Shown here: one piece after another, positions 3,012 to 50,041 of the stretch
Position numbering within the stretch: the first letter of the stretch is position 1
Layout: each line of letters opens with the position of its first letter
Origin: Marsupella aquatica
Lineage: Eukaryota > Plantae > Marchantiophyta
Direction of reading: 5' to 3'
Assembly: GCA_973895155.1 (NCBI GenBank)
Contig: OZ316895.1
Coordinates: forward strand, 6,316,136 to 6,380,135
DNA length: 64,000 nt
Position numbers and translations under genes: made by a program
Notes under the pieces: generated by a model
Database searches by the model: none
Told to the model about the DNA's origin: nothing
What the model saw: the letters and a program-made list of their open reading frames with translations, nothing else

Positions 3012-3202
3012 ATCTTCCCCTTGACTCTGGTCTAGGGGAGAGTAATACTGCCAATGTATATGATCCCTCAGCGGGAAGTTCTGGACAGAAACCAAACCGG
3101 TTTCCCTCTCTAACTAGAGCAAACCAGAACTAAGCCGTAGCCTAATACATAGGAATGAGGAAGAGCATATATCAGTAATTACAATGAATGTTTAAGAAAA
3201 CT

Positions 3203-8651: not shown

Positions 8652-8663
8652 GCTCTGATACCA
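8652..8663 (-). promoter_or_regulatory. Primer binding site (tRNA-iMet) of copia #1
   Basis: Reverse complement TGGTATCAGAGC lies 2 nt inside the 5' LTR. Confidence 0.95.
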
Positions 8664-8665
8664 AT

Positions 8666-9122
8666 TGTTGAGCATAGACGACGATCGCAACGGCAAGCCC
8701 ATGAACCATCCAACGCACAATAGTCGACACAAGAGATACGTGGTTCACCTCCTTGAGGCTACGTCCACGGGAACACACAAGAGAGCTTTACTGAACTCTA
8801 AGCCCGTCGGCTATACCGAGTCTCCACAGTGTAAGCTCTCCCTATCTCTCAAGTGGCTCCATAACAATGAGCCTTGGTTCTACCTCTCCAAGCACACATG
8901 CCTCTTATGATATAGTGTGCAACTTAGTTGTACCTAACCACATAGTTGTACCTAATCACGTAGTTGTACCTAACCACATAGTTGTACCTAATCACGTAGT
9001 TGTACCTAACCACGTAGTTGTACCTAATCACGTAGTTGTACCTAACCACGTAGTTGTACCAACCCACGTTGTTGTACCAACCACGTCATACCTAACCTAG
9101 ACGTAAGAGTAAATACCCAACA
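8666..9122 (-). repeat. 5' LTR of copia #1
   Basis: 457 bp, TG...CA, followed by TSD CATGC. Confidence 0.97.
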
Positions 9123-15918: not shown

Positions 15919-18900
15919 CTACTTGTGAGGCAATTGCAAAACCTGCAACGCATCACGGTGTCTAGAAAAACTCTCCAAAGGAATCACTTTGGTAAAAGCG
16001 TCAGCCGGGTTGAGTTTACCATCAATCTTGACTAGCTCAAACATATTATCAGACACAGCTTGCCTGATAAAATGATACCTGACGTCCATATGCTTCACTC
16101 TGTTGTCCATCACCTGGTTCACAGCAAGGTAAAGCGCACTCTGACTATCACAATGGAGCTTCACATTCCCCTGTGGCAATCCCATCTCAGTGATCAGTCT
16201 ATCTAACCAAATTGCTTCCTTTGCTGCTTCTGCTGCTGCAACATACTCCGCTTCTGTAGTAGATTGAGCAATACACTTCTGCAAGGTAGACCTCCAACTT
16301 ATGCATCCACCTCCCAGTGTGAACACATAACCTGTTGTTGACCTCCTCCGATCCAGATCCTGTGCATAGTCAGCATCTACATAGCCCATCAATGATCTAG
16401 CATTATCAGCATGTGCATCAAACAGTAGACCATGATCCATGGTACCCTTCAAATACCGAATAATCCACTTCACTGCTTCCCAATGTACCTTCCCTGGATT
16501 TGACATGTACCTGCTCACCTTGCCCATAGCCATGGCAAGATCAGGTCTAGTACAAGTCATCAAATACATGAGACTCCCCACTGCCTTGTCATACAAAACC
16601 TTTGACATCAACCCCTTCTCTGTGTCATCCGTAGGACACAAAGCTGATGACAACTTGAAGTGTGGAGCCAACGGGGTACTTACTGGCTTGCTATCCCCCA
16701 TGTTGAACCTTGTAATTACCTTCCTCACATAACTACTCTGCGTCAACCATAGCTTACCAGCCTTCAAGTCCCTAGTGATCTCCATACCCAAAATTCTCTT
16801 AGCTGGCCCTAAGTCCTTCATCTTAAACTTTGCACTAAGCAGTGCCTTGAGCTTAACAATCTCAGACCTATCCTTGGCCGCAATAAGCATGTCATCCACA
16901 TAAAGTACTAAAACAATGAACCCAAAAACAACATTCTTTACCGGTTTAAGATACACACATGGGTCAAACACACTCCTGTGAAAGCCTTGTGCACGGATCC
17001 AATCATCAAACCGCTTATTCCATTATCTTGGTGACTGCTTCAACCCGTACAAGGATCTCAGCAATCTGCAAACCAAATCCTCTTGCCCTTTCTTCACAAA
17101 ACCTAGCGGTTGTCTCATGAAGATCACCTCTTCCAAGGTGCCATAGAAGAAAGTTGTGACAACATCCATCTGATCTAGCAGCAGACCAAACGTAACAACA
17201 AGCACACACAATAGCCGTATTGTTGAGTACTTAGCAATTGGTGAGAAAATCTCATTGTAATCCACACCTTTTTCCTGTGTGAATCCCTTGGCTACCAACC
17301 TAGCCTTGTAGACCTTTGATCCACCTTCCATGGACTGATCCTTCAGCTTGTATATTCACTTGCTATCCACCACTTGCTGTCCCTCAGGCAGCTTGACAAG
17401 CTCCCAAGTTTTGTTGTCCTTTAGTGACTGCATCTCCGTTTGCATTGCTGCAGTCCACTCCTGCTTCTCCTTTGAAGCACTTGCTTCATGAAATGAAGAA
17501 GGTTCCCCTTCTTCCAAGATCAACGCATCACCCTCATCATCAGTAACAAAGTCCTCATCTTGGAACTGAGATGAATCAACACACTGTCCATACCTTGGTG
17601 GAGCGCGTACAGTGCGACCAAATGTTCTTCTAGCCGATGACTCCGGTTGATCTGCGTGTGCTGGTACAATTTGAAGCTCAACAGCATCCACTTGCTGCTC
17701 ACCAGCATCAACAAACTCCTCTAGTTCCTCTGGCACAGGAACCAACTCCATAATTGGAGCAACTCTTTCTCTCCGGTCATGCACCTCATGACCAATCTCC
17801 CCCTCAACGAGATCCGGGATAGGAGATTTTCCTTTGTCAGTACGGGAGACCTGAGTATTCTTCCCCTCCTTCAATAATCTGGATTCATTGAAGGAAATAT
17901 CTCTACTGACAACGAGCTTACAGGCAATAGGATCCCATAGCCTATAGGCTTTCACACCACTCTGGTACCCAAGAAAAACACATTTCTTGGAGGTAGGATC
18001 CAACTTGGTTCTATTCTGCTTCGGTGTGAGAGCATATGTATCACTTCCAAAAACTACCAAGCCATAATAGTCTGCTTGTCGCTTATAGCGCATCTCAAAC
18101 GGCGTTTTGAATTGATAGCACTAGAAGGAGAAAGATTTACCAAATAAGCTGCGGTATTCACAGCTTTTGCCCAAAATTTAAGTGGTAAACCTGATTGGCT
18201 CAACATACTCCGTGACCGCTCCAATAGTGTCCGATTGAGCCTCTCAATGACACTATTCTGCTGTGAAGTATAAACTATGGTGAGATGGTGAGTTATCCCC
18301 TGTTCTGAAGTGTACTCCCCGCCGTTGTCTGACCTCAAACTCTTCACCCTTGTATCCAAACACTTGACTGTGTTTTCAGTCTGATTTTCCACCTGAGCCT
18401 TTCATTTTTTAAAAATGGATAAGACATAAGACTTATGCGTCATGAAATAAATCCACACAAATCTTGAGTAATCATTAATAAATGATACATAGTATAACTT
18501 TCCAGAATATGAGGGAGTCGGGGATGGATCCCACACGTCACTATGTATGTACTCAAGAACCGCTTTGGAACGATAAGTTCCAACACCGAAAGCACGACGA
18601 AGCTACTTTCCAAGAATGCAATGGTCACAGAACTCTAATTTACAAGATTGCAAATCAGAAATGAGTCCATTCTTCCGTAAGATAGCCAAATCCTTCTCAC
18701 TCATGTGACCTAACCGTGAATGCCATAGTTGAGTCATCTCCTCGTGAGACTTGGTTACATTGGCCTCTCCACATACAGTATTGCCCTGTAACACATACAA
18801 ATTCTTGTGTTTACTCCCCTTCAAAATCATTGTCTCTCCCGACCTGACTTGAAGTTCACCATCAATAACACTCCATTGATGACCATTTGAATCCAACACA

Positions 18901-19170
18901 CCAAGTGAAATCAAATTCTTACGCATGCCAAGTACATATATACCTGACTCCGGACACTGTGCGCACAGCGCCATCAATCATTTGAATCTTCATAGACCCA
19001 ATTCCCTCAATTTGATAGGAGTGATCATTTCCCATCAGAACTGAACCGTTTGAAACAGAGTAAGAACTGAAAAACTCACAAATAAAACAAATATGAAAAG
19101 AGCAAGCACAATCAAGAATTCACACATCATCTGCTACCCTAGATGACGTGCACAGGGCATACCCCCGACT
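15919..19170 (-). pseudogene. pol: Copia pol of element #2 (multiple stops/frameshifts, small deletion in integrase)
   Basis: Fragment ORFs 18603-18977, 18054-18392, 17356-18093, 17023-17331 and 15919-16971 are collinear with pol of #1. Confidence 0.93.
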
Positions 19171-20208
19171 TCATAAAACATACTCATCATTGAGTAAATC
19201 AGCTTCTCCATCAACCCTAGCCACATTTGCCGATGAAGATTCCGTTGCCTTTTCCTTACAGTTTTGCTTGAAGTGTCCAACTTGGTTGCACTTCCAACAT
19301 GTCACTTGCCTCCTCTGAGGGGATTTACCCCTGGACTTAGATCTGGCTTTAGATCTAAATTGGGTTCTACGATCCCCAGTTGGTCGCTGCATACTCCTCC
19401 CACGATTAACATTGAAGGCAGCACCAGATGATGAAGGTTGTGACGTGATGTGCATCTTTTGCTGAAAATCATCACTAAGCAGAGAACTTACCACGTCATT
19501 GTATGAAATGGTATCCCTATCACGATGCAACAACACTCGTGATAGGGATTGGTAAGATGGAGGCAATGAACTGAGAAGCTGCAGAGCCTTTGTCTCATCA
19601 TTCAAAGTCTTCCCAAGATTTTCCAAGTCAACGACCATGTCGTTGAAAGTATCCACATGGTCTTGTAACTTTGTACCGGATCCTTTCATCCTAAAACTCA
19701 TCAGTTTGTAGGAAGTGTAGAGCCTGTTCGACAACTCCTTGCGGTGATACTTGCTCTGCAATTCTGCAAACAAGGACATGCAATCCTTATGTGCAAACTA
19801 CTTGATGATGGGAGGCATGAGATAGAGTGTAACACACCATACTCCCTGCTCCTGCATGCGGTCCCATTGTTTCTCATCAACATCGTCTTCACGAGGGCTC
19901 AATAGTTGGCCCATCCCTGATGCATAGAGCACTCCCTTCACCTGCTTCTCCCATAGTAAGTAGTCAGAGCGTACATCATACTTTGTCACTTCATACTTGG
20001 GTCCCCCAAGCTTGAAAGTCCCCATCTTCTTCTTTGGCACTATTGTGAGCTCCGGTAGTAGTACTGCTTCCTCCACCATACGCCGCACCGGTGATGGTAC
20101 CGGTGTCACGTGCTCTTCCTCCTGCTCCTCTCTCTGGCCCTCAAACCGCGGCGGTGATCCTCGTGCTTCAAGTTCCACATCTTTGAAAAACTCCTCTGAA
20201 TCACTCAT
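19171..20208 (-). pseudogene. gag: Copia gag of element #2, frameshift near 19797
   Basis: ORFs 19798-20208 (MSDSEEFF...) and 19171-19779 (CWKCNQVGHFKQNC). Confidence 0.92.
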
Positions 20209-22959
20209 ATGAGAAAATCACAAAAATGTTGTTTTTCACACCTTTTCAAAAACTTGAAACTCAACACTGCCGCGTAGCCCACAAAGCTAGGAGTCCAATA
20301 CTGAAAACCGAAATCAAAATCAAAATTTGACGAAAACGTTATTCAAATTTTGGTCGGGGTGGGTAAAACCTTGGGAAACTCCCCCGTTTTGACCACCTCA
20401 AGGAATAACCGAAATACCAAGTACAACTCGTCGTCGGAATCGCAATGTGATCGGTGCGCCGCGTTGCCAACTTCAATGGCTACAACCTCGCCGAAAAAGA
20501 ATCAAAAAAGTTACCGTTCGACGGACGGAAACTTTGTCGGATGGCCGAAAAACAACTCTCTATTTTTTGGGAATATTCCCGCACTGTCCGACGGGTCTCA
20601 CAGGGGGCCGTTCCCCTTGTCTAAGCGGTTAAAATGGAGGGTCACAGGGCCCGGGATGCGGCACAACCAATGAGGAGGAGGAGAAAATAAATAAATTAAA
20701 AAAAGCACTTTAAAGGGGTCTTAAAGCCCCTGGAAAAGGCGCACATATTCGCGGCCACGCGCGCATATTCGCGACTAGAATCGTGTATAAACTGCCAAAA
20801 AACGTGAAAAAACGGGTTTAAAGAGGTCAAAATGCGCGTATTTTTATGTATTCGGGCCGTATAAGGGCGTTGTGGGCCGTATTTTCACCAGAAAAAGCAC
20901 ATTTTCATGCTTAGAGGGGTGTGGGAGGCCGGGGCGCGCGCTGGGGCATATGGCAAAGTAGGTTTGTCGGGATTTGAAGGTATACAGGCCGTATAGGGGC
21001 AAAACAATGCCCTAAACTAACCTTAAAATATGCCAAAAAATGACACAAAGGCCGTGTTACAAACCTCAGGTGCCTCCGCTTCGGTTTCCAATGAGAAAAG
21101 TGATGACCGCTGACATGAAATTTTGCCGAATTGCACCGGCACGTCTGCAGCTCCACCAGAGAAGAGAAAACCTCCGCCGTGTCTTACTCTCTCCGCGTCA
21201 AGGGCCAATCCCAGACTCAAAACGATTGCCTCACCACGATCTCTCCGTTGAGCCTCAACAATTCGCGTTTCTTCCTCCGAGTCAAGCGTCACGACAAGTA
21301 ATCCGGTTCAGGGAAAAACAAGCACCATAGCTTGTCAAAAAACCAGAACTCAACTTTCACTCGTCACGACGCACTCGCTCCACAAACGCCAGCAAACCAG
21401 GTACCAAAACGACCAGCTCGCTTCAACCTTCAACTTGAGCTATAACATGCGATGCCTCCCGCACCGCATAGCTCACACCGTTGAAAAAACAATCTCTAGT
21501 CTCTCTCCCAAAATCCCGTCGAACAGGAATAAACCCTGAACAACACAAACTTCAATTCCTCCGCACCACGGATACCGATCAGCAAGTTCTAACCACCGTT
21601 AGAAAGCCCTCTCACTAACCTATTTGCTCAGCCACACACGTTCAAGTTTCATGCGACGAAACCCCGAATGCAACACCAACAATGAACGCTGGAAAACCGT
21701 CACAAAAAAACCTTGTCACCTCCCAGGCATGCTCTGATACCATTTGTTGAGCATAGACGACGATCGCAACGGCAAGCCCATGAACCATCCAACGCACAAT
21801 AGTCGACACAGAGAGATACGTGGTTCACCTCCACATGAGGCTACGTCCACGGGAACACACAAGAGCTTTACTGCACTCTAGGCCGACCGGCCATACCAAG
21901 CATCCACAGCACAAGCTCTCCCTATCTCTCAACTGGCTCCGTAACAATGAGCCTGAGTTCCCACTCACCAAGCAAACACCGCTTGGTTATAGAGTGTCCA
22001 CAACATGACTAACCTAACCAAGTCTATGACTAAGGTTAGCCTTAACTACGGTACAATTGTAACTCTAGACCTAAGAGTAAATCCTAACATGAACATGGTG
22101 GTATATGTAATGGCCATGACATATGTTTCTTGCCAAAATGTACACTTTTTGAAAGCCTTTTTGTACACTTCATGTGTCTCACATGTTCATAAATCAAATA
22201 TTAATTCACTTTTAATGGATAGGCGCCGCAAGTGATGCACTAGTACACAATAGGGAACCAGAATACAAACTCACCCCCACTTCTTCTTTCTTACTTAGAT
22301 GCCCAGAAACAAGGAGAATTTTGAAGTCATTTTTCTGGATTGGCAAACCTGACGAGGATCTTGTCTAAGGGAGAAACCCTAACAAGTTATGGTTTAACTA
22401 GAAAGGGCGACTTCTGAGGTTGACAATGGACATGTGTTGGCATTGAACTGAAAATAATGAGAATAAAATTTCTCCATGCTTTCTTCCTCTTCAATGTTGC
22501 ATACCAAATTGTTCTATGCCTTTTAAAAACACTTTGTATGGAAATATCAGAGACAAGCCATAGAGAAAACACTTTGTAAAAACACTTTGTAAAAACACTT
22601 TGTACAAACCATGGAGAACTACAACCTTTGTCTAGAGAAATTCCATCTAGACCACATGCGGCATTTGGCTTTGATGGAATGCACTCAGCAGGGCATTCCA
22701 TGTTCAATCCTAAAATACTTATAGACTACAGTATTCTGCCTATGGGATATTTGATCAGGAATGGTGATTTGACAAAAATCAAAGCATAGGTGACATATTG
22801 GGAGACAAGATACCTTAAGCAGGAGACCCAATAAATAGGAGAAATCAAGGAAGAAACCCCAGAAGACCAGAGAGCCAGGAGTCCCCAACAAGAGTCCCCC
22901 ACAACCAAAAAGTACTTACCCATTTATACCTCGCACGGTCACTCATGTTAAATTGACAG

Positions 22960-27742: not shown

Positions 27743-30051
27743 AGGAAGGGATACATGAGCCTATGGTATACTATAATGAAGTAACTGGCCCAAAGCCTGT
27801 GCATTGCCCCTTTTTATTAATAATATTTAGAAGTGATGTCAAGCACAAGTATTCTTGAATGAGCATAAGTGAGATGACTAGGCAATCCAACATTTTTGGG
27901 AGTTGGCAAGTCTGCCTAGAAGTTGGATTTGAAACAGAGTGTACAAGTTGTAGGAAGAGTGACAGGTTAGGCTCAGACTAGGTGCACAATGGCACCCTTT
28001 ACGCCCATCTCGATGTTAGGAATAAGGGTCACTAGAACTAAAGGCCAGGTACAAGCTTCATTGGGCTATGAGAAAAAAAGAGAATGATTTTTCTCCAGAG
28101 CATGCAATTGATGTAGGGTAGCCACAAGGGGACAATACCCAAGGATCCAATAGGTACCCAGACCAGGAGGGAGAAAGAAAGTTAAACTAGGAACCCAAAG
28201 TAGGTCAGCCAAGGGCTAAGGAGACCGTAGTGCTTGAGATAAGTAATTTCATCAGTTATCAATCATCTTTATCAGTCAACCTGATATCAGTTGGCACCTC
28301 ATCTCAGAGAGACCACCAAGTTGCAACGTGAGAAAAAAAAACATTCAATATTTTAGGACACCCCATAGTGAAAAAGTATTCAAATTCAAGTATTCAAGTA
28401 TATCAAGTATTCAAATATATCAAGTATTCAAATATTTATAATGCCAAGATGGGGTCCGCTGAGGTGGGCGGGTATCCGTATGGTATAAACACCAAAAAAA
28501 ATTTGGATTTGTTTTTTTCAACTGCCCAATTGAGATACACGGAGGTACAAAGGCCCCATCTCAACTACTCAGCTGAGATTAAAAAAACATTTAATGCCAA
28601 AACTAATAATTGATACCAACAAGTGATATTAATTACCAGCCGCTGATAATTGATATTGTGTACCCAATACTCTTACTGTTATACACTACACCCACATATA
28701 CACACCCCTTGCATGTGGAGGGGGTTTGGACTCTCAATTCTAGGCTATTTCCCTGGCCGACTGACCGAAGCCAGTTGTTTATAATTTGTAATGAACTAAA
28801 TCAATGAGTGTGTGGAATAAATAATCCCCCATATACTACTTTAAGCATCTAAGTATACCTGCAAAGAGATGAGAGGATTAGAAAAGACAGTGAGGATTAA
28901 TCCACAACATTTCCTGGAGACTAAGTCACATCATTGTCCGGAAGAGAACACCACATCATTCCCTCTAAAGTTGACTATAGTTAGTTGACCCTCGTATGTG
29001 GTTTACCCCAGATCTCTATCAGACTTTTCTGTTCTCTGCTCAGTAGGGTGTCAGCCTTCTAGGCTTCTTTGTAGTTTCCTTTTTTGTGTCTAAGTTCCTT
29101 TGCTTTTAGGGGACCCCTTGGCTTGTTGGACCCTCTGGTCTTCTTGGGGCCTTTCCCCTCCTTGCTCCCCCCCGTCCTTGGGCCTGTCAATGGGATCCTG
29201 TCTCCCGGTTTGGCATTTTTGCCCTTTGGCATTGTGATATATAGTTCAGCATGGGTTAACATATGTGTACATCTAGACCAAAAGGTATCAAGACAAGTTG
29301 AACTACAGATCATAGTTGGAATGACATAGTTGGTTGAACACAGGTTGACACATGATTCTTGAACAAATAGGTCCTGAGAAAGTTGAGCTATCGGGCTTTG
29401 CATTGAATCCACTTGTTTATTGAGATTAGAAGACAACTATTGTGCCCATCCAAGAGAGGAATTATAAATAGAAGCTAAATGAGGGATATGTGCAGTTAAA
29501 TTCTCAGTGGCTATGTTTTTAAACATGGGTTCTGAGTTCACCATCAAAATCAAACTGACATAGCTTGCAACGTTTGACAAGATGCTTGGATTGACTCTCA
29601 TAAATTGCATGGATTTACCAGACTTCAAATGTTACTTTTTATCCAGATAAAATAATTCATTTGTATAATGCTCATCGTTTTGGGTGTCAAGAAGTGCTGA
29701 CTTTTGTCCATCATTCTGTGTCTTTAGCCTTTAGGTAATACGTTGTTCTGCTTGAGCATCAACTTCTCGCCATCAAGAAGATTTTTAGATTCATTTGTTT
29801 CTAACTAAAACTTTGACACATTGTTTGTGATTCTAAATTCCTTGTCTCAAATATATCTGAATAGCGAGTTGTCAACTTTACATACTAGACTTACTTAGGT
29901 ACTCTCCCATGCAAGTATCTTGCAAACAGCTCCCTAGGAATCTTCTAGCTTATTATCCACCCCAACCAATGCACAATTTGAATTTCATTCCAGAGCATTT
30001 TGGGAATTTGTTTTTAAGGGAACTAGCTTGTAGGTTTATGTTATTGTTGTA

Positions 30052-31215
30052 CGAGCTCAATACCCGTGCGTTGCACAAAAGAAGTCGTACCGGCCAAGAT
30101 GTTGTTGAGAAAAAAAAGATGTCGTGTAAGCCAAGAGGTCGTGGAGAGAAAAAATGTCATGTCGGCCAAGAGGTGGTTGAGAGAAAAAAAGATGTCATGT
30201 TGGCCAAGAGGTCGTTGAAAAAAGTTGTCATGTCGGCCAAGATGTCGTTGAAAAAAAGATGTCGTGTCGGCAAAGACATCATTGAGAAAAAATATGTCGT
30301 GTCGGCCAAGACATCGTTGAGGGAAATTACCCATGCATTGCACAAAAGATGTCATTAAGAAAACAAATGTTGTGTCGCCCAAAATATCATTAAAATAAGG
30401 ATATCATGGCGCCCAAGATATTGTTAAGAAAACAGATGTTGTGAAGCCCAAGATGTAGTGTCCCCCAAGATGTCACTAAGAGGAAAGTATTGTGGCGCCC
30501 AAAATGCTCTTAAGAGAATGATCTGTTGTGTTTCCCAAGAATGATGTTCTTATGTGAAAAATGTCATGAAGTAAAAAGATGTTGTTAAGAAAAAGAAGTC
30601 ATTTTGCCAAAGATGGCATGTTGCCCAAAAGGTCATCAAGTAAAAAATTGTGTCAAATAAGTAGATGTCATGTTGCCAACGATGTCGTTAAGTATTAAGA
30701 TGTTGTTAAGTATAAAATGGTCAATAGATAAAGTATGTCGTTACTAAACGAGGTTGTGAAGTAAAAGATGTTGTTAAGTACATATCGGGCCTGATACCTG
30801 TGCATTGCACAAATGATGCATGTTGAGGTGAGAAAATATATCAAGGTGAGAAAAGATGTCGATAAGAGAAAAACCTTTTGAGCTGAGAAAAAGATGTCAA
30901 GGAAAGAAAATATAGCAAAGTGAGAAAAAGATGTCATATTAGAGATAAACATTGGGAGGTGAGAAAAATAAGTCAAGGAGAGAAAAGATGGTGAGATGAG
31001 AAAAAGATATCAATATGAGGAAAAAATGTTGAGGGTGAAGAAAGATGTTGTGGTGAGATAAAGATGACCAGGTGAGAAAAATATGGCAAATAGACAAATA
31101 TAATATATATGTTGAGGTGAGAAAAGATCTTAAGGTGAGTAAAATATGTCAAGATGAGCAAAGATCTTGAGGTGAAAAGATCTTAATATGAAGAAAAGAT
31201 GTCAAGATGAGAAAA
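30052..31215 (-). mobile_element. Non-autonomous Helitron-like element with degenerate minisatellite
   Basis: Minus strand ends GTGCAACGCACGGGTATTGAGCTCG, a Helitron-type 3' hairpin with a degenerate CTAG. ~31-bp AAAAAGATGTCGTGTCGGCCAAGA units, then GGTGAGAAAAGATGT units. 5' end not located. Confidence 0.55.
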
Positions 31216-32052
31216 TATTTTATCTATATTTTATTTATATTTGAAATTATTTCAAAAAAATTAGAATTTAGAATTTATTAATAAATTTAATTAAAATTTG
31301 ATTAATTTTTTCAATTGTGACAGGTATGGGAAGGTTAAAGGGTAGCTGGGCAGGAACTTATTTTTAGAAGGGATGTATGGATAGATCTTAAAGTGTGGAA
31401 AAAATTATGTTTTGATAAACATTCAAGATTGATTGTCACTTTTTTTAGTTTGTAAAGGGACCGGATCATGTATATGGTAAAGTGAGGTCTCCTTGATACT
31501 CTTGCATTACTAGAGACCCTCCTTATTTTCTTTGTACTATTAAATTCATTTTGCGCTTGGAAACATTGCTCTCCATTTTCATTCACAAAAGAAATCATTC
31601 TTTCATGTTTTTCATTTTGGGGATATTATAAATTTGAATGACTACTATAATAAAAAAAAGTAACATTTTATTATAGCTTTTGACATGGTCTTTGTAATCT
31701 AACTTATTTTTAATTAATCTATTTTAATTAAATTACTATCATTATTATATTTTGTAATGTTATAATACTTGCAATAATATATAGTATCATATATGTTATG
31801 TACTTTTGTATTTCATGTGTATATCTCCTTGATACTAATGCATGTACATTCACTCTCTTGTTTTGTGTGCCCCATTGGTTCTAGCATTGGCTCCCTACTT
31901 TTGTGTCTCCCATTTGATTCCCTGTTTGTTTAGAATGTATTTATTATTTTTTGGTGCACACTAAATTTAATATAACCCTTATTCCTTCTCTTTGACATGA
32001 TTAATGTTTTTTGGACAGTGCAAATTTGAATGATCATCTCTTCATAAAAAGG

Positions 32053-36960: not shown

Positions 36961-37669
36961 TCTCTCTCTACGAGTTTAGTAATGTGCCACGTCTTCAGGG
37001 TTTGGGCTTGCTCCTCAACAACTAAGGAAGTCAGTAGGTAAATTTCCATAAACTCCTCCAAACCACAATATTAGTATCATTTGCCCTAAACTCCAACAAG
37101 AATCCGTTGGACTGTTGAATGGCACGAAAAGAAGAAACAATGGCCATAATGTTATCCACATGAAGGACCAGAAGATTGCCAATAATATTTTTAAGTACAT
37201 CCATATCAGACAAAAAAGCTTGCAGGAAAGGAGAAACCCGTGACCATTTAATGTCGTACGTAATTGAAGAAATTTTCTGAACAACTGATTTATCTCTTGT
37301 AAGCGAGGAGTAATATTGTAAAATCTCAACTCCGCCTCTTTGATAGTTAACAAGAAGCCTTAAAGGATGGGTCTAAGGCCTTAATTCCTTTTTCCAAAAA
37401 ATTATAATTTTTAGAAATGTAGTCCTAAAACAAGCAATAAAATCAGCATATTTGTTTGACATTCACCCTTTGCAAATTAAACTAGACTTTACGTCAATGT
37501 TTGAGACAAAACATATTCAAAACTTGATTTTCATAGAATTGACCTGTCAAAAACAATCATTTATATCATAGTCTAGGCTCCCAGGCCATTGACATCTCAA
37601 AACTTGCAAGTAAAGTCTACTTCTATGCAACTACAACAACCCTAAAATGTCTTACAGAAATATCCTCAG

Positions 37670-40600
37670 CTAATCATCTCTTGTTTCCTCAGCACTTCCA
37701 ACAATTCCTGAAGAGTCAAGTCCTATGATTTCCTCCTCTCCAACTCCTATCTCTGGTATTGGTAGAATGGTCTCTTGAACATCAACATCTAAATCCACCA
37801 TGCCTTTGCCATCATCTTCCTCAATGTTGTCCACCAGGTTTAGAATTCTCCCTTTCAAGACACTGCTCTGGCGCTCATCAATTTCTACAGCAACACAATG
37901 TCTTCCTTGTGCCAAAGAGGAAGACAATCCTATGCCTGACCCTGAACAAATATCTAGCACCCAGTCTCCAACCTGGCTAAAGTGGGTAACTTCCCAATCC
38001 AATAACACTCTTGGCTTCTGGTAAAAGTTCACCATCTTATTGTCCCCGTTGTGTTTCAACTTATTGGTCACAGCTGGACACACAACCACATTATTTCGAG
38101 ACTCATTAGTCTCAAAATTGAAATGCTCCAAAGACCGTTTCCCATCCTGACTATGAAAGCCAATGGTGAAACACTCAAAATTGTTGTTAAGCCTTGCACC
38201 TCTTGCATTCTTAACATTGTCTTTCACCCTGCAAAAACCAAAACTTGCATTATGGATTTGTTTCAAAATCAAACATCATGAAATCATGAACACCAAAAAA
38301 ACATATTCACCTTTTGAAATGTTTCTTACCAAATACAATTCTGGAAACCACCATTACACTCAGCTTTCAAGACAGTCTTGACAGCATCATACTGGTCAAT
38401 ACTATGATGAATGATAATTCGCCAAAGATTTGCCTTGGTGACAACCTTGAAGGACTGAACCATCTTGGTCACCTCTTCCACACCCCATCCAACATTGTCT
38501 TCGTGAAGACAAGCAGTCATTCCAAACCCATAAGGAATATTTGCCAAAGCCAATGTGTAAGCTCGTGATGGGATTACCTCGTGCAACCGCTGAGCATCGT
38601 GTGTAAAGATATCATAGTACACATCCCCAAACTGTGGATGCTCAAAAGCATTAGGATGAAGTTCACTTCCCTGGGTCTCTTGGCAAGATTTCTTCATTGC
38701 CAACCAGTTCTGTGCTTGTGCAATATGTGCATTGAACTTATCTGGGAAGGACTTCAACTCTTTGCTTTCTTCATTCTCTCCCTTCTTTTCCCGAGAGCTG
38801 TTGTCTTTCTGAGAAAACAAAATTGGGTACATGAGATTCCTACATACTTAAGAATAAAACTGTAAAACAAATGCTCAGTCAATCTCAAATAAACTTACCC
38901 AAGTCTGGAAGACAGGAACAAAATTCTTCAGCACATTATCAATGTAGTGTTCTGGGTACTTGGTTTTGCAATTCTTCCAACTCTCTTCGTGAAGACAGGT
39001 AAGAAATGCTTTTTGAACTTGCATTTGGAATTTGTGTCATTGAAATTCCTGTCCCATCTCTTGAAGAGATAATTCCTTTGCAAAAACCCTTTGTAGCACT
39101 GGACAGATCATGTCCGGATCTTTCAATGCCTGCATGTGTCTCCACTTAGTCAACTTCATATCCTCACATAGCATTTTAGCATCTCCAGACTTGGACATCT
39201 TTTTCTTGGTCTTATCTCCTTTCTGTCCTTTTATCTCACAATTCTCCCACCTGTCAAATATCTGCCGTATGAAAGACCAAACAAGATCCTTACGAAATGC
39301 CAATTGAAATAAATTATCATTGGCATTCAGAACCTCAAAATCTTTACGTACACCCCAGTCCTTTAGATTGATTTTAGTGGCACACTCCTTCTTGAAATCA
39401 ACATTTGATGATGCTCCATTCTCTACAAATCGCATGTGAATGTAATTCACTCTTTGGATGGTGCTCATTTGTTGACAAAATTCAGAGTCTATATTATGAC
39501 TCCAAGCTAAGTTCCTTGCTTCCTGGATAGACAAGCCTGCAAAGATCCAAGATTGCACTCTCCTGTACGACTTGTTGTTGGGAAATTGTAATGCCAGGTC
39601 TGCCTTTGCACAAGCAAAATGATTTCCCCCAATCACGTAATAGTGGTAATCATTCTTTTTTGAGAAATCAAAATCAGCTCGAGTTGGGCACTCCTTGGGA
39701 TCAACCAAGAGAACAAAAGGTGCTGCCAATGGACTAGCTCCAGCTGCTTTCATCCTTGTTGTCAACTGTGTAAGAAAGTAGGGTTGGATATGCCTTACTT
39801 GGTACACTGGCAACTCCAAAGATTTCTCCCGGACAGGTGGGTGAAGTTGTGCAATGTCAATTGTGATTGTCTCCTCTTGAACTCAACACCTCATCAAAAT
39901 CCCTTCCTGGTACACCACCCGAGCATCCATAGACATAGATTGAGCCTTCTGCTCCAGATGAGTGGGGACTTTTTCCAACGTCTGCTTCTTGGATTTTGGT
40001 GGACTTGGTCTTGCACCTTGAGAACCCTCTGGTCCACGTTTCTTTGATGAAGTCCGAGTACCGGCAGTGCCCTGTGCTAATCCTCCAGTCACAATTGTCC
40101 CCTCTTGTGATCTTGCAATTTGTGAACCAACACCAGATATTGGAGATGTAACAACCATCTTTCTCGTTGGGACAGAACTCGGACAAGATCCGGAAGGAGC
40201 AGAAGAAGGACCAGACTTTGGTGGACGGGCACTGGCACTCTTCTCTGCTGCTTTTCGAAGAATCTCCCTAGACTTTTGAATTGCACTCTTCAATGTGCTG
40301 GCATGATGTTCAAACACAAAACCAACAATGAGCTCTGCAATCTCATCGTAGCTTTCTTCTGCAGACAGATTCTTCACCTTCTCAATCATCATCTCAATGT
40401 CATCAGGCAAGTAACAATGTGCAGCTCTTCCAGAAAATCTCTCACTGTCAACTGCAATCAGTGTAGATGTCTCCTTTGTTGTGATAAGCATATTGAGGAC
40501 ATCAGCCCCTCGTCGAAAGACATCAATCCGGCCATAATTCACCCAACCAAGACCTCCAGAAGGCAAGGTCTCGTAGATGCACAACATCCAAAAAGACTTC

Positions 40601-40881
40601 TTCCACGATTCTGTACCCAATGATATTGTCCAGGAAGAGTTTCCAAAATCTGTCAAAGGATGCTCAACAAAAATAGCGTCTAACACCTTCTCCTGTGATT
40701 TTGGTTCAACCATTCTGACTTCCTGAAATCAAGTCCAACAATGCAAAGTCAGCTCTGTTTGTTTTTCAAGTTCAGTTGCAGAATTCAGATTCATGATTTC
40801 ATGAAGCAAGGTTCTTACCTTGACAGTGGAGTTGGAAGTTGAATTTGCAGTGCCTGTTGTTCCCGCTTAGAAGAGTGTCAT
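37670..40881 (-). pseudogene. Four-exon ParB/Srx-like domain + beta-class N6-adenine/N4-cytosine DNA methyltransferase fusion (~974 codons, 3 in-frame stops)
   Basis: Predicted exons 40881-40819, 40722-38899, 38808-38330 and 38228-37670 with GT-AG introns join in one frame (2925 nt). Motifs: YYVIGGNH (ParB-like), LALANIPYG (motif IV), CIWVK..RLNNNFE, YQKPRVLL, GDWVLDICSGSG..GRHCVAVEID (motif I, SAM binding). Stops: TAA in exon 1, TGA at 39883 and 39037. Exon 1 is the least certain part. Confidence 0.85.
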
Positions 40882-41039
40882 TGGTATTTTTATCCCTGAT
40901 TTTGGCTTAGCTTATCTCCTTCACCTCCCTGGCAGATGCCTAAGCTGATGGACCCCTCCCCACTTAATGTCGTTTGCAATGTCCTCCCCAATTTGGACCT
41001 TGTCCCTTCGGCAATGGTCGATCCTCCCCAGGCCTTCGA

Positions 41040-41470
41040 CTAAAGCTCTCTCCCTCGCAGCGCCTTGTCAATTTTCCTCCCCCCCGGCCTTAGCCAATTT
41101 CTTCCTCCCCCTGGCCTTCGCCAATTTCTTCCTCCCCTGGCGCTTCGACTATTTTCCTCCCCCCGGCCTCGACACTTTTTCCTCCCCCCGGCCTTGACAC
41201 TTTTTCCTCCCCCCGGCCTGCGCCTCGACACTATTTCCTCCCCCAGGCCTTTGCCAATTTTTCCTCCCCTGGCCGGTGCTTTGAGTAATTCCCCTCCCCG
41301 AGGCCGGCGCTTCTTCCCCGCGCCCCCGGCTGCGCCTCGACAATTTGTCCTCCCCCCGGCCTTTGCCAATTTTGCATCCCTCCCCTGGCCTTCAAAAATT
41401 TCTCCTCCCTCCCACGAACTTTGCCAATTTCCTCTCCCCAGGCCTTTGACAATTCCTCCCCGAAAACTCT
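41040..41470. repeat. C-rich tandem array (~27-31-bp units) inside the MTase element
   Basis: Units like (GCCAA/GACAC)TTTT(T)CCTCCCCC(C)GGCCT repeated more than 10 times. Confidence 0.85.
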
Positions 41471-41640
41471 CTCCTAAGCGCAAACTTGCACGACAGCTTT
41501 TGATCTTGATGTCTCCTAACCAAATTTCTTCCACTCCCTTCCACGATTAATCCTCCATTCCACGACCGATCTGCGCCTCAACAGCCAGGAAATTACAGAG
41601 CTGCACCAGATGTTGGTCCGCCCCCGATTTTCAGTTCCAG

Positions 41641-41729
41641 TTTAGGGATTCAACCCAACTCCTATTCAGACCCTTCAACCTAACTCCTATTCATGAGTTC
41701 ATGGATAGGAGTTGGGTTGAATCCCTAAA
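41641..41729. repeat. Long inverted repeat / hairpin
   Basis: TTTAGGGATTCAACCCAACTCCTAT (41641-41665) pairs with ATAGGAGTTGGGTTGAATCCCTAAA (41705-41729). Confidence 0.85.
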
Positions 41730-41766
41730 ATCCTATTCATGAATTCATGGATTCAATCAATCTCTC

Positions 41767-42450
41767 TTGCTTGAAGAAAGACCTTTGATCTCTCCATTTG
41801 AATGGCCCAAGGCACAAGGGGATACAAATGTTGAAGCTCATCTCGAAGCTGAACCTCTTACAACTATATTGAATGAGGAAGAAATTGAAGAGAGAGTGTA
41901 CAGTCCAACTAGAGAAACTTATGTTGGTCCATATCGAAATCAAGAAAAGATAGATGCAAAGAAGGAGAATATGGAAGGTGATTTTTTGGATTTGGAAATC
42001 AACACATTTATTTCTGTGGCCGGAGAGAAGTCTGAATCATTTTGGGTGGCTAAAGTAGAAAAAATTGTTCTTCGCGATGAGGCTCACATCCCAAAGATTA
42101 TCTCAGTTTTGTGGCATGCAGCAAAGAAAGGATCCGACCCTTGGAAAGGAAAATATCTACCAGAAGTGTTGAGTTACAAGAAGAAGAAAAGTGGACGAGG
42201 CAAGGGAACCTTGAAACCAGTTTGGTTTCGTCAAGACCTTGATCTGTCTTCAACTACGGTCTTTGCATATAATTTTATGCTAACAAGGTCTGATACTCTT
42301 TACAAGAAAACAATAGATCGTATTAAAATACGACTCTCAGAATTTCTCAAGGAGGAGAAAGACCAAGAAGGTGAAGGTAGCATAGTTAGAAATTATGAAC
42401 AAGAAACTTCAATGGAAGTTCGGACTCTAGAAATGAATGGTAGGAATTGA
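41767..42450 (+). CDS. 5'-truncated ORF, probable C-terminal part of the element's transposase or accessory protein (SH3/BAH-like beta domain)
   Basis: 227-aa stop-free frame starting just after the hairpin, with no upstream ATG in frame. LEINTFISVAGEKSESFWVAKVEKI...IISVLWH resembles chromo/BAH/SH3-type barrels. Lies inside the TIRs. Confidence 0.5.
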   Translation: MLEERPLISPFEWPKAQGDTNVEAHLEAEPLTTILNEEEIEERVYSPTRETYVGPYRNQEKIDAKKENMEGDFLDLEINTFISVAGEKSESFWVAKVEKIVLRDEAHIPKIISVLWHAAKKGSDPWKGKYLPEVLSYKKKKSGRGKGTLKPVWFRQDLDLSSTTVFAYNFMLTRSDTLYKKTIDRIKIRLSEFLKEEKDQEGEGSIVRNYEQETSMEVRTLEMNGRN

Positions 42451-43274
42451 GATTTACCAATCTTAGCAATTTTGTCAAACAAGAGTATTTGCAATTTATT
42501 ATTGTTTGAGTTGGTGGCAAACCATAAATGTTGTGAATGATGAATTCATGAATCATATTGAAAGAAGTTTGACATTTTGAGAATGTCCATCGTGTGGGCA
42601 GTCTTGTTTGAGAAATTCAGAAAACAAAATATTAACTAAAAGAGGTACCTTCTAGAATCCCATATATATTTGAAAGCTTTTGATATACTCGTCATTCCCT
42701 TTGTGTGAATGATGGTTTTTCTTGGTAAATGAACCCTAGGATCCTACAAACTGCAAAATAATTCGGAAATCTTGACCCTCTTTTGAAAACTTTACATATT
42801 TGGGATGTCAATGAACTTTAGGGTGGTATTTCAAGGGTGAATGTGTTATTGAGCCGATTGAATGTGTGCTAGTAATAAATTGCAACATTGAAATATGTGG
42901 TATTTGCTTATTAAATGTTTCCCACAACCAGTTTTGTGATTTTGAGTAGTCAACATGATGCCCTATTTTGTGTTTTTTTGCAAGTTTTGAGTTCTTGCCA
43001 AAAAAAGAGCTTGTTTTTAGATGCATTTTTTGGCTTTTTCCATATTTTCAAGGTTTTTTATCATTAGTTCTTATACATTGGGCTTATTACCCATCCTTTA
43101 AGGCTTCATGTTAGTTGCCTCCTCTTGACTTGGCCCAGCATACACTTACACGTACTAGTAAGACTCTTAGTGATGAGAACTCTGAATGAGTTTGAGGTTC
43201 ATCCTCCTGTCATATTTATAGTGCTTGGTACAAAGTTTCTTTCAAAAGCTCGCATGCCTAAGGAAATATCTCAA

Positions 43275-43475
43275 GTTCCTTCCTAGCACACCTTACTAAG
43301 AACTTTCTATGGTTCTTTCCTAGCACACCTCGCTCAGAATCTTCTATGTTTTTTTCCTAGCACACCTTACTAAAAAATTTCTATGGTTCCTTCCTTGCAC
43401 ACCTCGCTAGGAACCTTCTATGGTTCCCTCCTATCACACCTTACTGGGAAGTCAACCTTCTATGGTTCCTTCCTT
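43275..43475. repeat. About five copies of a ~38-bp tandem repeat
   Basis: TTCCTAGCACACCT(T/C)(A/G)CT..GAAC.TTCTATGGTTC units. Confidence 0.8.
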
Positions 43476-45217: not shown

Positions 45218-48200
45218 TGTTAGATATTGCTCTAGTCTTGTGACTCTTGTGCTAACCACAATTAGGCTAACTCGGGTTAGGACCTAGCTAAGGTTAGCGG
45301 TAGTGCTGTTGTGCATATAGACAGGGCTAATACCAGACCCTGGTGGAACTTAGGCTCATTGTTACGGAGCTAGTTGAGAGATAGGGAGAGCTTGTGCTGT
45401 GGATGCTTGGTATGGCCGGTCGGCCTAGAGTGCAGTAAAGCTCTTGTGTGTTCCCGTGGACGTAGCCTCATGTGGAGGTGAACCACGTATCTCTCTGTGT
45501 CGACTATTGTGCGTTGGATGGTTCATGGGCTTGCCGTTGCGAATGTCGTCTATGCTCAACAAGTGGTATCAGAGCATGCCTGGGAGGTGACGAGGTTTTT
45601 TTGTGACAGGTGTTTTCCAACGTTCATTGTCGATGGTACATTCGGAGTTTCGTCGCATGAAACTCGAATGTGTGTGGCTGTGCGGATAGGTTAGTGAAAG
45701 GGCTTTCTAACGGTGGTTAGAACCTGCTGATCGGTATCCGTGGTGCGAAGTAATCAAAGTTTGCGTCGTTCAGGTTTTATTCATGTTCGACGGTATTTTT
45801 GGGAGAGTGACCAGGGTTTACGTTTTTCAACGGTGTGAGTTGTGCGGTGCGGGAGGGATCGCACATTATAGCTTAAGTTGAAGGTTGAAGCGAGCTGGTC
45901 ATTTCGATAGCTGCATTGCTGCCGAGTTGTTACCGAGTGCGACGTGACGAGTGACGGAGGCGTTCAGGTTTTTTCACAAGCTATGGAGCTTGTTCTCATC
46001 TGAACCGGTTTTTTCTTTGTAACGTCCGACTCGGTGGAAGAGACGTGAAGTGCTACGGCTCAACGGTTTGATCGCGGTGAGGCGGTTGTTTTGAGCCCGG
46101 GATTGGCACTTGATGCGGAGTGAAGGTGACGTGATGGAATTTTTTTATTCTGCTGGAGCAGTAGATTGCGCCGGTGCAATTTGGCAACATTTCCCGTCGG
46201 CGGCGTTCACTTTCCTCACTTAAAACAGCGGCATTCAAGGTGTGTAAACGACTTTTTTGTTTTAAAGTCAAATCTTGGCTTAGGTTAGGGCCACTTTTGG
46301 TGTGTATACACACCCTCCCAGCCCTTGGTCCCCCATCGTTTCCCCTTGTACGCCCGACCCCCCCGCACCTTGTTTTCCCCTCATCCTTCAGCCGCGGCGA
46401 CGAGCTGCGCAACACCGGCCGGCGCTTTTCGCGCCCTCATACGCCCTCCGCCATACCACGCCAGTCGCTGCCTCGGCCCCGCCCTGACGTCGTATGGCCG
46501 GCCTTGCATGTGTACGCGGCTGCGTATGCATCCGCTCTATTACACCGCCCTAGTAACCCCAAGGCGTACTCCCGGCCTTACGCCCTTCGGGCCCGCCCGT
46601 TCATACTGTATTTTTTTATTAGGGGCTTAAGCACCCCCTTTAGGGCCATTATTTTGCCTCTTTTTCCTCCTTATTGGTTTCCTTTTGTGCCGGGACCTGC
46701 CGCCCTCCGTTTAAACCGCTTGGACAGGGGGAACGGCCCCCTGTGAGACCTGCTGTACTGTGCGGGAATATTCCCAAAAAACAGAGAGCTTCTGGACACA
46801 TCATCAAGCAACTGGATGATTATGCGGATTGCGCGTCATTGTTCAAGGCTCTTAGAGAGAAATACTACCGGGAAGATGTGTCAGACCGGCTGTACAAGAA
46901 GTCTCTCTTGATGAGACTTAGGCTCAAGGAAGGGAGCAAGATGCAGGATCACCTGGATGAATTTGATAGTCTTGCGGTGGATCTGTCAAACCTGGGAAAA
47001 GGAGTTGAAGATGAGGATAAGACCTTGCTTCTGCTAAGCTCCTTACCGCCGTCTTATTAGGGCTTGAAATAGGTTCTCTTGTATAGAGATTTGAAGTCCA
47101 TTTCGTATAATGAGATGGTGAGCTCATTACTGTCTGATGATGCTCAGAAGAAGCTGGGTCAATCACAGACAGCATCTTCTTCTGGCATTGCGCTGAATGT
47201 GAACAGGGGAAGAGTAGTGCAGCGCACGAATGGACAGAACAGGTTTAGATCTACAACACGGGGGAGATCTAAATCCAGAGGGAAATCGCAAGAGAGGAAG
47301 CCTCTTGCATGTTGGAATTGTGGCAAGCCTGGTCACATGAAAAGGGATTGTCGAGTAAAGGTCCCTATTGCCTCTGCTAATGCGGCATCGAGCTCGCATG
47401 AGGTAGATTTACTCGATGATGATGACATATTGTGATGTCAAGGTTATGCTCTCAACGTAATGTCAAATCCAGGTAAAGATGACTGGATTCTAGATAGTGC
47501 ATGTACTTTTCACATTTGCTCTAGAAGAGATTGTTTCAGTTCTACACGGTTTCCAACGGGTCAGTGTTGATGGGAAATGGAATCCATGTCAAGTTGTTGG
47601 ACTTGGATCTGTAAGATTTCAGATGTTTGATGGTGCTGTGAGAACATTGAGGAATGTGAGACATATTCCTGGCATGATGAAAAATCTCATTTCACTTGGA
47701 GTTTTAGAAGCAAATAGCCACCAGTGGAGCTCTGCTAATGGTGTCCTTCAGGTTTCAACTGGTACTAAAGTTGTATTGAAGGGAAAGAGACATAGCAATC
47801 TATATATTTTGGAGGGCAGTGTAGTTTATGATGAAGCCAATGTAACCTTATCTCATGAGGAGACGGCCCGGCTGTGGCACTTCCGTTTGGGCCACATGAG
47901 TGAAAAAGGTTTGGTTATTCTTTAGAAGAAAGGATTACTTTCTAATTTGCAATCTTGTAAGTTGGAATTTTGTGAGCACTGTGTGCTAGGGAAGCAGCAC
48001 AGGAAACCCTTCGGAGTTGGAACTCACACTAGCAAGGAGGTACTTGAGTATGTACATAGTGATGTGTGGGGCCCAGCCCCTACTCCCTCATATTCTGGAC
48101 GGTTATACTATGTCACGTTCATAGACGATTACTCAAGGTATGTGTGGATATACTTTCTACACAATAAGTCTGATGTTTTGGCCACTTTTAAGGAGTGGAA

Positions 48201-50041
48201 AGCCCAAGTTGAGAATCAGACTGGTAATAAGGTGAGATATCTTCAATCGGATAACGGCGGTGAATACAGTTCCGCGGAATTTGGAACATATTGTAAGGAG
48301 CAGGGGATTACCCGCCATCTCACAACAAGTTATACTCCTCAGCAGAATGGTGTTTCTGAGAGACTCAACCGAACACTATTGGACCACTCGAGGAGTATGT
48401 TGAGTCAATCATGCTTACCACATGAGTTTTGGGCTGAAGTTTTTCAAGGATGGTGTATGATCCTTGTGTGTATACGAAATTAGTCAAGAATGATGTATTT
48501 GGTTTCATCATTCTGGTGATTTATGTGGATGACATGCTGATTGTGGCTAAAGATCAATCTGAGGTTGACAGTCTCAAGGCAAAATTGAGTGCTGAATTCA
48601 GGATGAAGGATCTTGGTAAGGCCAAGAGAATCTTAGGGATGGAGATTTTTAGGAACTCTGAGACTGGACAGTTGTGCTTGAGTCAAGGCCAGTATGCGAG
48701 GAAAGTACTTGCACGATTCAACATGGAAAACTGTAAGCCAGTGAGTATTCCTTTAGCTTCACATTTCAAGTTATCATTGGCTTTCTCTCCTACGGAGACT
48801 GTGGAGAAAGGTCTGATGGCTAAGATTCCTTATGAGAAGGCAGTAGGCAGTCTGATGTATTTGATGACTTGTACTAGGCCTGACTTGGCCCTAGCGATGG
48901 GCAAGGTTAGCAGATTCATGTCAAATCCAGGGAAGGTACACTGGGAAGCTGTGAAATGGATTCTCAGGTATGTGAAGGGAACACAGGACTATGGATTACT
49001 ATTTGATAACAGATCAGATAGAACGTTGGTTGGCTATGTAGATTCTGACTATGGAGGCTGTCTGGATACAAGGAGGTCTACAACTGAGTTTGTATACACT
49101 CTTGGAGGAGGATGTATCAGTTGGAAATCTACCTTGCAGAAGTGCATATCTTAGTCTACTACAGAAGTAGAGTATGTTGCAGCAGCAGAAGCAGCAAAGG
49201 AAGCAATTTGGTTGGATAAGTTGATCGCAGAGATGGGTTTAGAGCATGGAAAAATGACTCTAAACTGTGATAGTCAGAGTGCTCTTCACTTGGCTGCTAA
49301 CCAGGTGATGGATAGCAGGGTGAAGCACATTGATATCAGGTACCATTTTATCAGGCAAGCAGTGTTTGATAAAAATTTTGAGCTAGTCAAGATTGATGGA
49401 AAGCTCAATCCCGCTGATGCCTTTACCAAAGTGATTCATTTGGAGAGCTTCTCAAGACACCGTGCTACTTTGCAGGTTTTGCAGTTGTAGTGCAAGTAGA
49501 GTTATTTAGCAATGTGTGACTATTTGTATATGGATTACTCATTCCTGTTAGGCTATGACTTAGTTCTAGTTAACCCTTAGTTAACCCTTGTGGTTTTTAG
49601 GGGGAGACCTGGTTTGGTGATTGTCTAGAACTTCCCGCTGAGGATTCCATATGGTAGCATTTAGTCCAGTCCCCAAGATAAGAGTCAAGGGGGAGTTTGT
49701 TAGATATTGCTCTAGTCTTGTGACTCTTGTGCTAACCACAGTTAGGCTAACTTGGGTTAGGACCTAGCTAAGGTTAGCGGTAGTGCTGTTGTGCATATAG
49801 CCAGGGCTGATGCCAGACCCAGGTGGAACTTAGGCTCATTGTTACAGAGCTAGTTGAGAGATAGGGAGAGCTTGTGCTGTGGATGCTTGGTATGGCCGGT
49901 CGGCCTAGAGTGCAGTAAAGCTCTTGTGTGTTCCCGTGGACGTAGCCTCATGTGGAGGTGAACCACGTATCTCTCTGTGTCGACTATTGTGCGTTGGATG
50001 GTTCATGGGCTTGCCGTTGCGAATGTCGTCTATGCTCAACA
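45218..50041 (+). mobile_element. Internally deleted Ty1/copia element #3
   Basis: 344-bp LTRs (45218-45561, 49698-50041; about 7 differences), TSD AGTTA, PBS at 45564-45575, PPT AAGGGGGAG. Deletions remove the gag 5' part (~46790) and INT C-term/RT N-term (~48440). Confidence 0.96.
46790..49490 (+). pseudogene. gag-pol: Gag-pol remnants of copia #3 (divergent from #1/#2)
   Basis: CWNCGKPGHMKRDC, WILDSACTFHIC, LWHFRLGH, SDVWGP, SDNGGEY, YVDDML, CDSQSA; several stops and frameshifts. Confidence 0.92.

Follow-up and report, generated by a model that had tools for sequence, protein, structure and literature searches.

The 64,000-nucleotide stretch of the liverwort Marsupella aquatica analyzed here (contig OZ316895.1, positions 6,316,136 to 6,380,135; hereafter the window, numbered from its first letter) contains a 5,764-bp DNA transposon at 37349-43112, bounded by 23-bp terminal inverted repeats (TIRs) and a 4-bp target-site duplication (TSD). 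Within one TIR pair lie two divergent genes: a transposase remnant and, on the minus strand at 37670-40881, a gene encoding a predicted ParB/Srx-fold domain fused to a beta-class DNA methyltransferase (MTase). The gene, which an initial annotation made from the DNA letters had described as an intron-containing fusion, is real; what that annotation missed is that it is carried by a transposon and that the window copy has decayed. Taken jointly, the two statements that this is transposon cargo and a dead copy are in our judgment nearly certain.

When the four open reading frame (ORF) pieces of the fusion gene are joined, a frame of 974 codons results, along which the motifs VIGGNH, NIPY, IWVK and DICSGSG follow in that order. 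All three introns begin with GT and end with AG at the coordinates first proposed (lengths in Table 1), with a GC content of 0.29-0.36 compared with 0.43 for the coding sequence. The proposal of a single frame held in that the pieces do join, but three internal stops interrupt it, at codons 5 (TAA 40869), 301 (TGA 39885) and 583 (TGA 39039). The start assigned to 40881 is probably wrong; homologs begin level with ATG 40713 in exon 2, and the ATG of the related locus L001 stands at the matching place. Judging from these alignments, the true start is probably ATG 40713, giving a protein of 950 codons with two nonsense codons. With this start, intron 1 and the exon 1 of the initial annotation would fall in the 5' untranslated region (UTR). 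One other copy of the element has a 1-base insertion at 40828, in this exon 1.

Introns 2 and 3 occupy identical nucleotide positions in all three related loci, L001-L003, which are metagenome loci obtained from 28 candidates and encode proteins 63-66% identical to that of the window. When close homologs are called without splicing, 11 of the 12 run into intron 2 and terminate in W-V, and P0094, an annotated spliced protein of the liverwort Calypogeia fissa, contains both joins, with 63% identity to the window protein over the 405 residues that span them. Comparison of these sequences indicates that chance does not account for introns 2 and 3; intron 1 lacks conservation of this kind. An extra intron, absent from the window copy, appears to be present in the N-terminal domain of L001 (2049-2310) and L002 (1009-1125), pointing to intron gain or loss within the family.

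From the phage-type domain architecture one might suspect a contaminant of bacterial or phage origin, or a young prophage piece, in which GT-AG pairs occur by chance. This explanation is contradicted by the intron positions common to the relatives, and Copia elements surround the gene. The searches brought up no close homolog from bacteria or phages: tblastn gave no match for P0094 in phage or plasmid records, nor for the distant family member P0228 in phage records, and scans of viral contigs and prokaryote genomes by short exact words, which exclude close relatives only, gave no relative. The best phage MTases are just 24-28% identical to a distant member, over the MTase domain alone. We consider contamination extremely improbable, and none of the outcomes that the initial annotation had named as refuting came about.

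Exon 4 matches PF01555 with E 2.8e-6 and 27.9 bits, and P0094 reaches 32.7 bits, both above the cut-off of 26.7. Motif IV precedes motif I, which is the beta order, and the AlphaFold2 (AF2) model of P0094 (pLDDT 82.5), compared by Foldseek and VIA, has a predicted beta-class fold; the original assignment to this class is borne out. The nearest structure to the model is CcrM (Foldseek E 1.5e-12; VIA Z 22.9, root-mean-square deviation (rmsd) 3.3, 224 aligned), followed by M.BceJIV, M.MboIIA, M1.HpyAVI and M.RsrI. The family profile likewise matches CcrM at 2.8e-11 and other N6-methyladenine (6mA) enzymes at 1e-8 to 8e-7, compared with 1.6e-4 for N4CMT and 0.045 for PvuII. The predicted MTase structure lies closest to the N6-adenine class, that of CcrM.

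Asp is the first residue of motif IV in 18 of 19 family rows; the window copy alone departs from it. The first annotation had suggested that NIPY may come from DIPY, and this is supported: all four close relatives have DIPY, other copies in public sequencing runs read Asp, and by this comparison NIPY is a change private to the window copy. Close and most distant members alike keep the motif IV Asp, the W of W.K, QKP and the D..SGSG motif for S-adenosylmethionine (SAM) binding. The target base had been called unreadable from sequence, but the family-wide Asp favours adenine more than that statement allowed. The possibility that the enzyme writes N4-methylcytosine (4mC) has in its favour that both characterised eukaryotic beta-class DNA enzymes, DN4MT1 and N4CMT, are described as doing so; these, however, have (T)SPPY, and with Ser in 0/19 family rows the SPPY catalytic motif of that type is absent. 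Several points weigh against an adenine-specific, active enzyme. The structural gap is small (PvuII Z 19.4 and N4CMT Z 19.0 versus 22.9 for CcrM), motif IV reads D-[I/F/A/L]-P-[Y/H/C] with canonical DPPY in none of the 19 rows and DALY in one, and the N6_N4 domain is reported to have switched repeatedly between 6mA and 4mC (PMC8885841). In our judgment, intact copies probably encode an active DNA amino-MTase and, if active, its target would probably be adenine rather than cytosine.

Exon 2 encodes an N-terminal domain of no known family, a low-complexity linker, the ParB/Srx-fold domain and a helical region. The ORF with VIGGNH has no Pfam, PHROG or NCBIfam match. Its AF2 model (pLDDT 74.8, 13 sequences) gave nine Foldseek matches at E<=0.001, all to Noc or ParB (E 4e-5 to 1e-3) and covering the N-domain plus the DNA-binding domain. 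The top VIA match is PadC (Z 8.4, rmsd 3.0, 94 aligned), followed by KorB, SerK, Srx and SbnI, down to Z 5.3; the top eight rows are all ParB/Srx-fold proteins. The claim of a ParB/Srx-like N-domain thus stands for the predicted fold but not for Pfam, in which no match exists. In 108 aligned rows the core is conserved, with Arg in 54/58 and Asn in 83/85 at the positions that we take to be ParB Boxes I and III, and the His of GGxH, presumably Box II, in 89/95.

The ParB reading has its own weak points. The likeness lies at the level of the fold, with no Pfam ParB among the 25 families shown for 70 members and no PDB match for the family profile; over the full length, Foldseek TM-scores are 0.27-0.33 and rmsd 9-15. 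PHROG ParB-like matches are weak (best E 3e-4) and confined to one to three distant members per family. The arginine of GxxR in Box II, after GGxH, is present in 1 of 95 family rows, 62 of which have Ser. In tested ParB folds, this arginine is reported to be required for nucleoside triphosphate (NTP) binding (PMC12704722), and its absence makes a CTP-driven sliding clamp less likely. The helical region after the N-domain, a putative helix-turn-helix (HTH), matches KorB and ParB DNA-binding domains at Z 2.9-3.7 only (VIA). Overall, the models suggest a eukaryotic ParB-fold family that Pfam misses. In the Atlas, leads for the window ORF 39040-39882 comprise DUF3723 as the best (0.96) and a mostly eukaryotic cluster. 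DUF3723 appears in papers on fungal Starship elements and may be another transposon-borne ParB-fold family.

In each of the four public runs aligned to the left end of the transposon, several flanks that are unrelated to one another join it at 37348/37349. Contig depth rises from 13.5 outside to 173 inside at the left end in X1 and from 166 to 1129 in X2; depth cannot be read as a number of copies, and the window itself may derive from X1 or X2. The public runs show the element to be multi-copy. For the inverted ends, a local-alignment null is loose, with 3 of 185 random pairs equally high, and the valid test is that of the shuffles (0/100). A Kolobok-type reading (TTAA target, AGG ends) was rejected on the break-point of the flanks: Kolobok and piggyBac have the TTAA target duplication at the element end, whereas here TTAA lies inside the TIR and the sequence common to the copies reaches to 37349. 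Over 37349-37411, high-depth contigs of runs X1-X4 have the TIR in common and diverge after ~37398, which suggests additional subfamilies of this kind or short derivatives that end in the same way.

All six matches of the transposase remnant (P0099-P0104) are DUF7869 proteins that carry PF25273 and three conserved Asp motifs; these homologs have no PDB match, and the identification as a transposase rests on motif layout and context. Other copies leave the window sequence after 41672 and continue into more transposase-like sequence before 41751, and the transposase match in the window starts at 41752, so that the window copy is an internal-deletion derivative. A reading of the hairpin at 41640-41728 as a miniature inverted-repeat transposable element (MITE) was dropped, because this hairpin is part of the deletion junction. 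No reverse transcriptase or recombinase turned up in the ORFs of the element that were scanned. A point against the main reading is that both genes were seen within one TIR pair in the window only, L001-L003 being too short to include both; P0007 (fusion) and P0104 (transposase) each come from a single contig of 8,829 nt, probably the same one. In L001, a divergent ORF upstream of the fusion gene (1-700, minus strand), with palindromes inside the coding sequence (283, 346), may be the first exon of a transposase; it has no match to the transposase homologs.

The window copy is damaged by two nonsense codons, the NIPY change and the deleted transposase core, while other copies in the runs have sense codons at both stops (39885, 39039) and Asp at motif IV. 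Of 29 coding differences from other copies that were classified, a subset of 40 rows shown with 382 further rows beyond these, 18 are of C-to-T type, 13 in CG or CHG context, a pattern that fits decay under host 5-methylcytosine (5mC). Between elements, nonsynonymous divergence (pN) is 0.11-0.26 and synonymous divergence (pS) 0.61-0.80 in six of six pairs, with synonymous sites near saturation; on these ratios the family is under purifying selection. Such selection, together with the introns and with related ESM Atlas clusters that are mostly from Streptophyta, could also be expected of a host epigenetic gene that was domesticated and then, by accident, picked up as a Pack-type passenger and amplified. 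We regard this origin as very unlikely in view of the many-copy state, the nonsense codons found in other relatives too (L001), the clustering of near-identical members on many short contigs, and the tidy divergent two-gene layout with shared palindromes.

These palindromes are 14 bp long, TCATG-N4-CATGA, and exact copies number two in the window element, four in L001, three in L002 and one in L003, a total of ten in four elements against 0.017 expected (shuffle means 0.00-0.03); 58 kb of flanks contain no exact copy. The test is post hoc, the motif having been first noticed in the same sequences. The last intron of each of the four elements contains one exact copy; that of the window element is displaced relative to the others, and outside the palindrome this intron aligns poorly. 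Others lie upstream of the gene (L001, L002) and in intron 1 (window), internal and not subterminal. A one-mismatch palindrome after the transposase stop is made exact by an 8-base insertion in X1 and X2, as seen by eye. The window-wide count of one-mismatch matches is marginal (nine, reached by 3 of 100 shuffles), and the signal lies in the exact copies within elements; no 4-mer palindrome depletion is common to the four elements.

Based on its recurrence in the elements and absence from the flanks, TCATG-N4-CATGA is a candidate self-recognition site; that it is the fusion protein's own site we give about an even chance. It could instead be a transposase or host-factor site, which would weaken the case for self-recognition: palindromes also flank the transposase gene (42538) and occur in the divergent ORF of L001. 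On the other side, the sites occupy internal instead of subterminal positions, and the MTase gene retains one in its own intron in four of four elements. That either the enzyme is active but writes 4mC, or the palindrome is not its guide but a site of the transposase or a host transcription factor, appears to us decidedly unlikely.

The family is broad, with 439 representatives recovered by profile search (E<=0.001), and its named close relatives come from a liverwort. Among the 149 new representatives listed, the MTase domain is present in 16, including 12 of the 19 with at least 500 amino acids, and the others are mostly short fragments. Matches to PHROG 67 and PHROG 498 link the family to phage ParB/MTase fusions. 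Atlas leads for a distant member place it beside two unnamed, mostly streptophyte clusters (0.90, 0.89), with phage ParB+N6_N4 proteins as the nearest named clusters (0.78-0.79). Given the low identity to the nearest phage MTases noted above, acquisition was old and no donor can be named. P0228, P0215, P0250, P0261 and P0267 are distant, differently composed members of the ParB-fold family with a GGQH motif; P0228 also carries a degenerate MTase domain, and the module may thus extend beyond land plants.

We consider it moderately likely, from the sequence features described, that the gene is the accessory gene of a cut-and-paste DNA transposon and that its product, a ParB-fold and beta-class MTase fusion, would in intact copies bind the element's own palindromes and methylate the element, likely at adenine N6. 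A ParB-N6_N4 MTase fusion of phage type would have reached an ancestor in the distant past and acquired introns; such fusions are described as phage-enriched (PMC12704722). A shared divergent promoter region would drive both transposase and fusion. The ParB and helical region would recognise the palindrome as a dimer, in the way of ParB and Noc at palindromic sites, and the tethered MTase would modify its own element in the promoter region and the introns, with 6mA as the more likely product. Such a mark would benefit the element, most plausibly by sustaining expression or transposition competence in a 5mC-silencing genome. Precedents for parts of this scheme are VirB, a ParB-type anti-silencer reported to be loaded at its own site (PMC10770331), the accessory proteins of VANDAL elements, and DAM-LTR elements, reported as enriched in 6mA (bioRxiv 2026.05.21.726589). 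The same preprint also speaks against the scheme: in E. coli, DAMs carried by retrotransposons produced no 6mA, and abundant 6mA is said to be lacking in streptophytes.

The absence of activity in E. coli is among the arguments for another role, in which the fusion is a site-specific DNA-binding accessory factor, either a transcription regulator or a transpososome partner, with a weak or dead MTase fold. The non-canonical motif IV and the lost Box II arginine fit this role, and DIRS-borne MTases were judged inactive (PMC4738411). The retention of the motif IV Asp, the W of W.K, QKP and D..SGSG fits selection for catalysis instead, and we hold the purely DNA-binding role to be unlikely. The proposal of a methylating accessory gene can be extended to a widespread streptophyte transposon lineage with a phage-derived, self-addressed 6mA system that uses a parS-like 14-16-bp palindrome, retained in promoter and introns, and escapes 5mC silencing; this extension is tentative, and we would sooner doubt it than accept it.

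The rest of the window consists largely of Copia elements. Three Copia-type elements with paired long terminal repeats (LTRs) lie at 2555-8965, 15386-22046 and 45218-49997; the first is young, as its 300-nt LTR segments are 100% identical and it has long gag/pol ORFs, and the other two are degraded. The AG-rich repeat arrays at 30050-31221, with units of 17-40 bp (families D3, D13, D19), resemble the subterminal part of a further non-autonomous element. A 37-bp tandem repeat of 5.3 copies occupies 43275-43474, directly outside the right TIR. A GTTGTGTGTATACAC-like motif is found upstream of the fusion gene in L001 (1540-1560) and L002 (380-400), with a similar one in the leader of a Copia element in the window (~46300); it is possibly a host promoter motif.

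Table 1. Features of the transposon and its fusion gene (window coordinates; strand given where it applies)
Feature	Position	Strand	Remarks
Left TSD, AGTT	37345..37348		Identical 4 bases at 43113-43116
Left TIR, 23 bp	37349..37371	+	Two matches in window, 0 in 100 shuffles
Exon 4	37670..38228	-	C-terminal half of beta-class MTase; TAG stop
Motif I (SAM binding), DICSGSG	37934..37954	-	Spliced frame, family alignment
Intron 3	38229..38329	-	GT-AG, 101 nt; position as in L001-L003 and P0094
Palindrome in intron 3	38276..38289		Exact; candidate self-recognition site
Exon 3	38330..38808	-	Linker and N-terminal half of MTase
Motif IV, NIPY	38530..38541	-	DIPY in relatives and other copies
Intron 2	38809..38898	-	GT-AG, 90 nt; homolog read-through and P0094 join
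Exon 2	38899..40722	-	Probable ATG 40713; nonsense codons 39885, 39039
ParB/Srx-fold domain	39493..39882	-	AF2 model, Foldseek, VIA; VIGGNH at 39636-39619
Intron 1	40723..40818	-	GT-AG, 96 nt; probably 5' UTR, from homolog starts
Palindrome in intron 1	40791..40804		Exact
Exon 1 (initial annotation)	40819..40881	-	TAA at codon 5; probably untranslated
GC-rich 25-bp tandem repeats	41072..41269		Between divergent genes; likely shared promoter region (putative function)
Internal-deletion junction	41640..41751		Inverted duplication; one-mismatch palindromes at 41691, 41737
Transposase remnant, C-terminal, DUF7869 DDD-type	41752..42450	+	51-56% identical to P0099-P0104
One-mismatch palindrome after transposase stop	42538..42551		8-base insertion makes it exact in X1, X2 (by eye)
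Right TIR	43090..43112	-	22/23 match to left TIR
Right TSD, AGTT	43113..43116		Pair of left TSD

If the self-marking account is true, land plants, in which real enzymatic 6mA is disputed, would have in this family a source of 6mA directed to specific sites, and the family would provide a eukaryotic ParB/parS-like pair. In addition to N4CMT and DN4MT1, the family may represent a third case of a beta-class MTase recruited by eukaryotes. Amino-MTases of prokaryote type in transposable elements have so far been described mainly in retroelements. With a candidate writer, a candidate address and young copies of one family, the 6mA question becomes testable with long-read methylation data.

The closest known architecture is that of phage and prophage fusions of ParB_N (PF02195) with N6_N4_Mtase (PF01555), including ParB-terminase loci, which have the same domain order and a beta-class MTase. 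Unlike these, the window family is eukaryotic, spliced and ~950 amino acids long, with an extra N-terminal domain, a long helical insert and a lost Box II arginine; it is carried by a TIR transposon, and the identity of the MTase domains is ~25%. A ParB-HTH Dam family of chlorophytes and chytrids is a different group, and in the part of that source available no clade matches the window family (PMC4738411). The Marchantia DN4MT1a/b and bdelloid N4CMT proteins are likewise described as horizontally acquired beta-class amino-MTases, and N4CMT also combines introns with a targeting domain. Both belong to the genes of the host, have (T)SPPY and produce 4mC, whereas the window family has D-x-P-Y and a predicted ParB fold; DN4MT1 was compared by its description.

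Among mobile elements, DAM-DIRS, DAM-LTR and EpiLTR (bioRxiv 10.64898/2026.05.21.726589) are likewise eukaryotic elements with a prokaryote-type adenine MTase and proposed self-marking. They carry partial Dam-type domains with an NPP motif, and DAM-LTRs are reported absent from Streptophyta; the window family has a complete beta-class enzyme with a ParB fold, encoded by a separate, intron-containing gene of a DNA transposon. MTases have also been reported in virus-borne Mariner elements (PMC3627910). The transposon itself resembles the Sola superfamily (PMC10741241) in its 4-bp TSD, short TIRs, DDD-type motifs, size range and presence in moss. The transposase motifs, DGMDQ, QLDN...ENKN and GHTHDQID, differ in detail from DF.EN, SDG...YKN and TSHGK of Sola2, with a layout that is similar by eye. 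Since the TSD and the DDD enzyme fit Sola and the motifs are unlike the Sola2 alignment, we call the element Sola-like, by comparison with Sola2 only. Sola2 elements are reported to carry cargo such as Fanzor (PMC3627910); no MTase cargo is reported for Sola elements in the literature searched. Nor did that literature contain a description of a plant DNA transposon with a ParB and beta-class MTase gene, although subscription papers and supplements may mention one.

VANDAL/VANC of Arabidopsis and VirB/virS of Shigella are likewise cases of a mobile-element factor acting at its own short motifs against silencing. VANC is associated with 5mC removal, and VirB lacks an enzyme domain and requires CTP; the window family differs in its fused MTase and in a function proposed from its sequence. 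What appears to be new, compared with these systems, is the TCATG-N4-CATGA palindrome as a candidate self-recognition site of a methyltransferase-carrying transposon, and with it a specific hypothesis of self-targeting.

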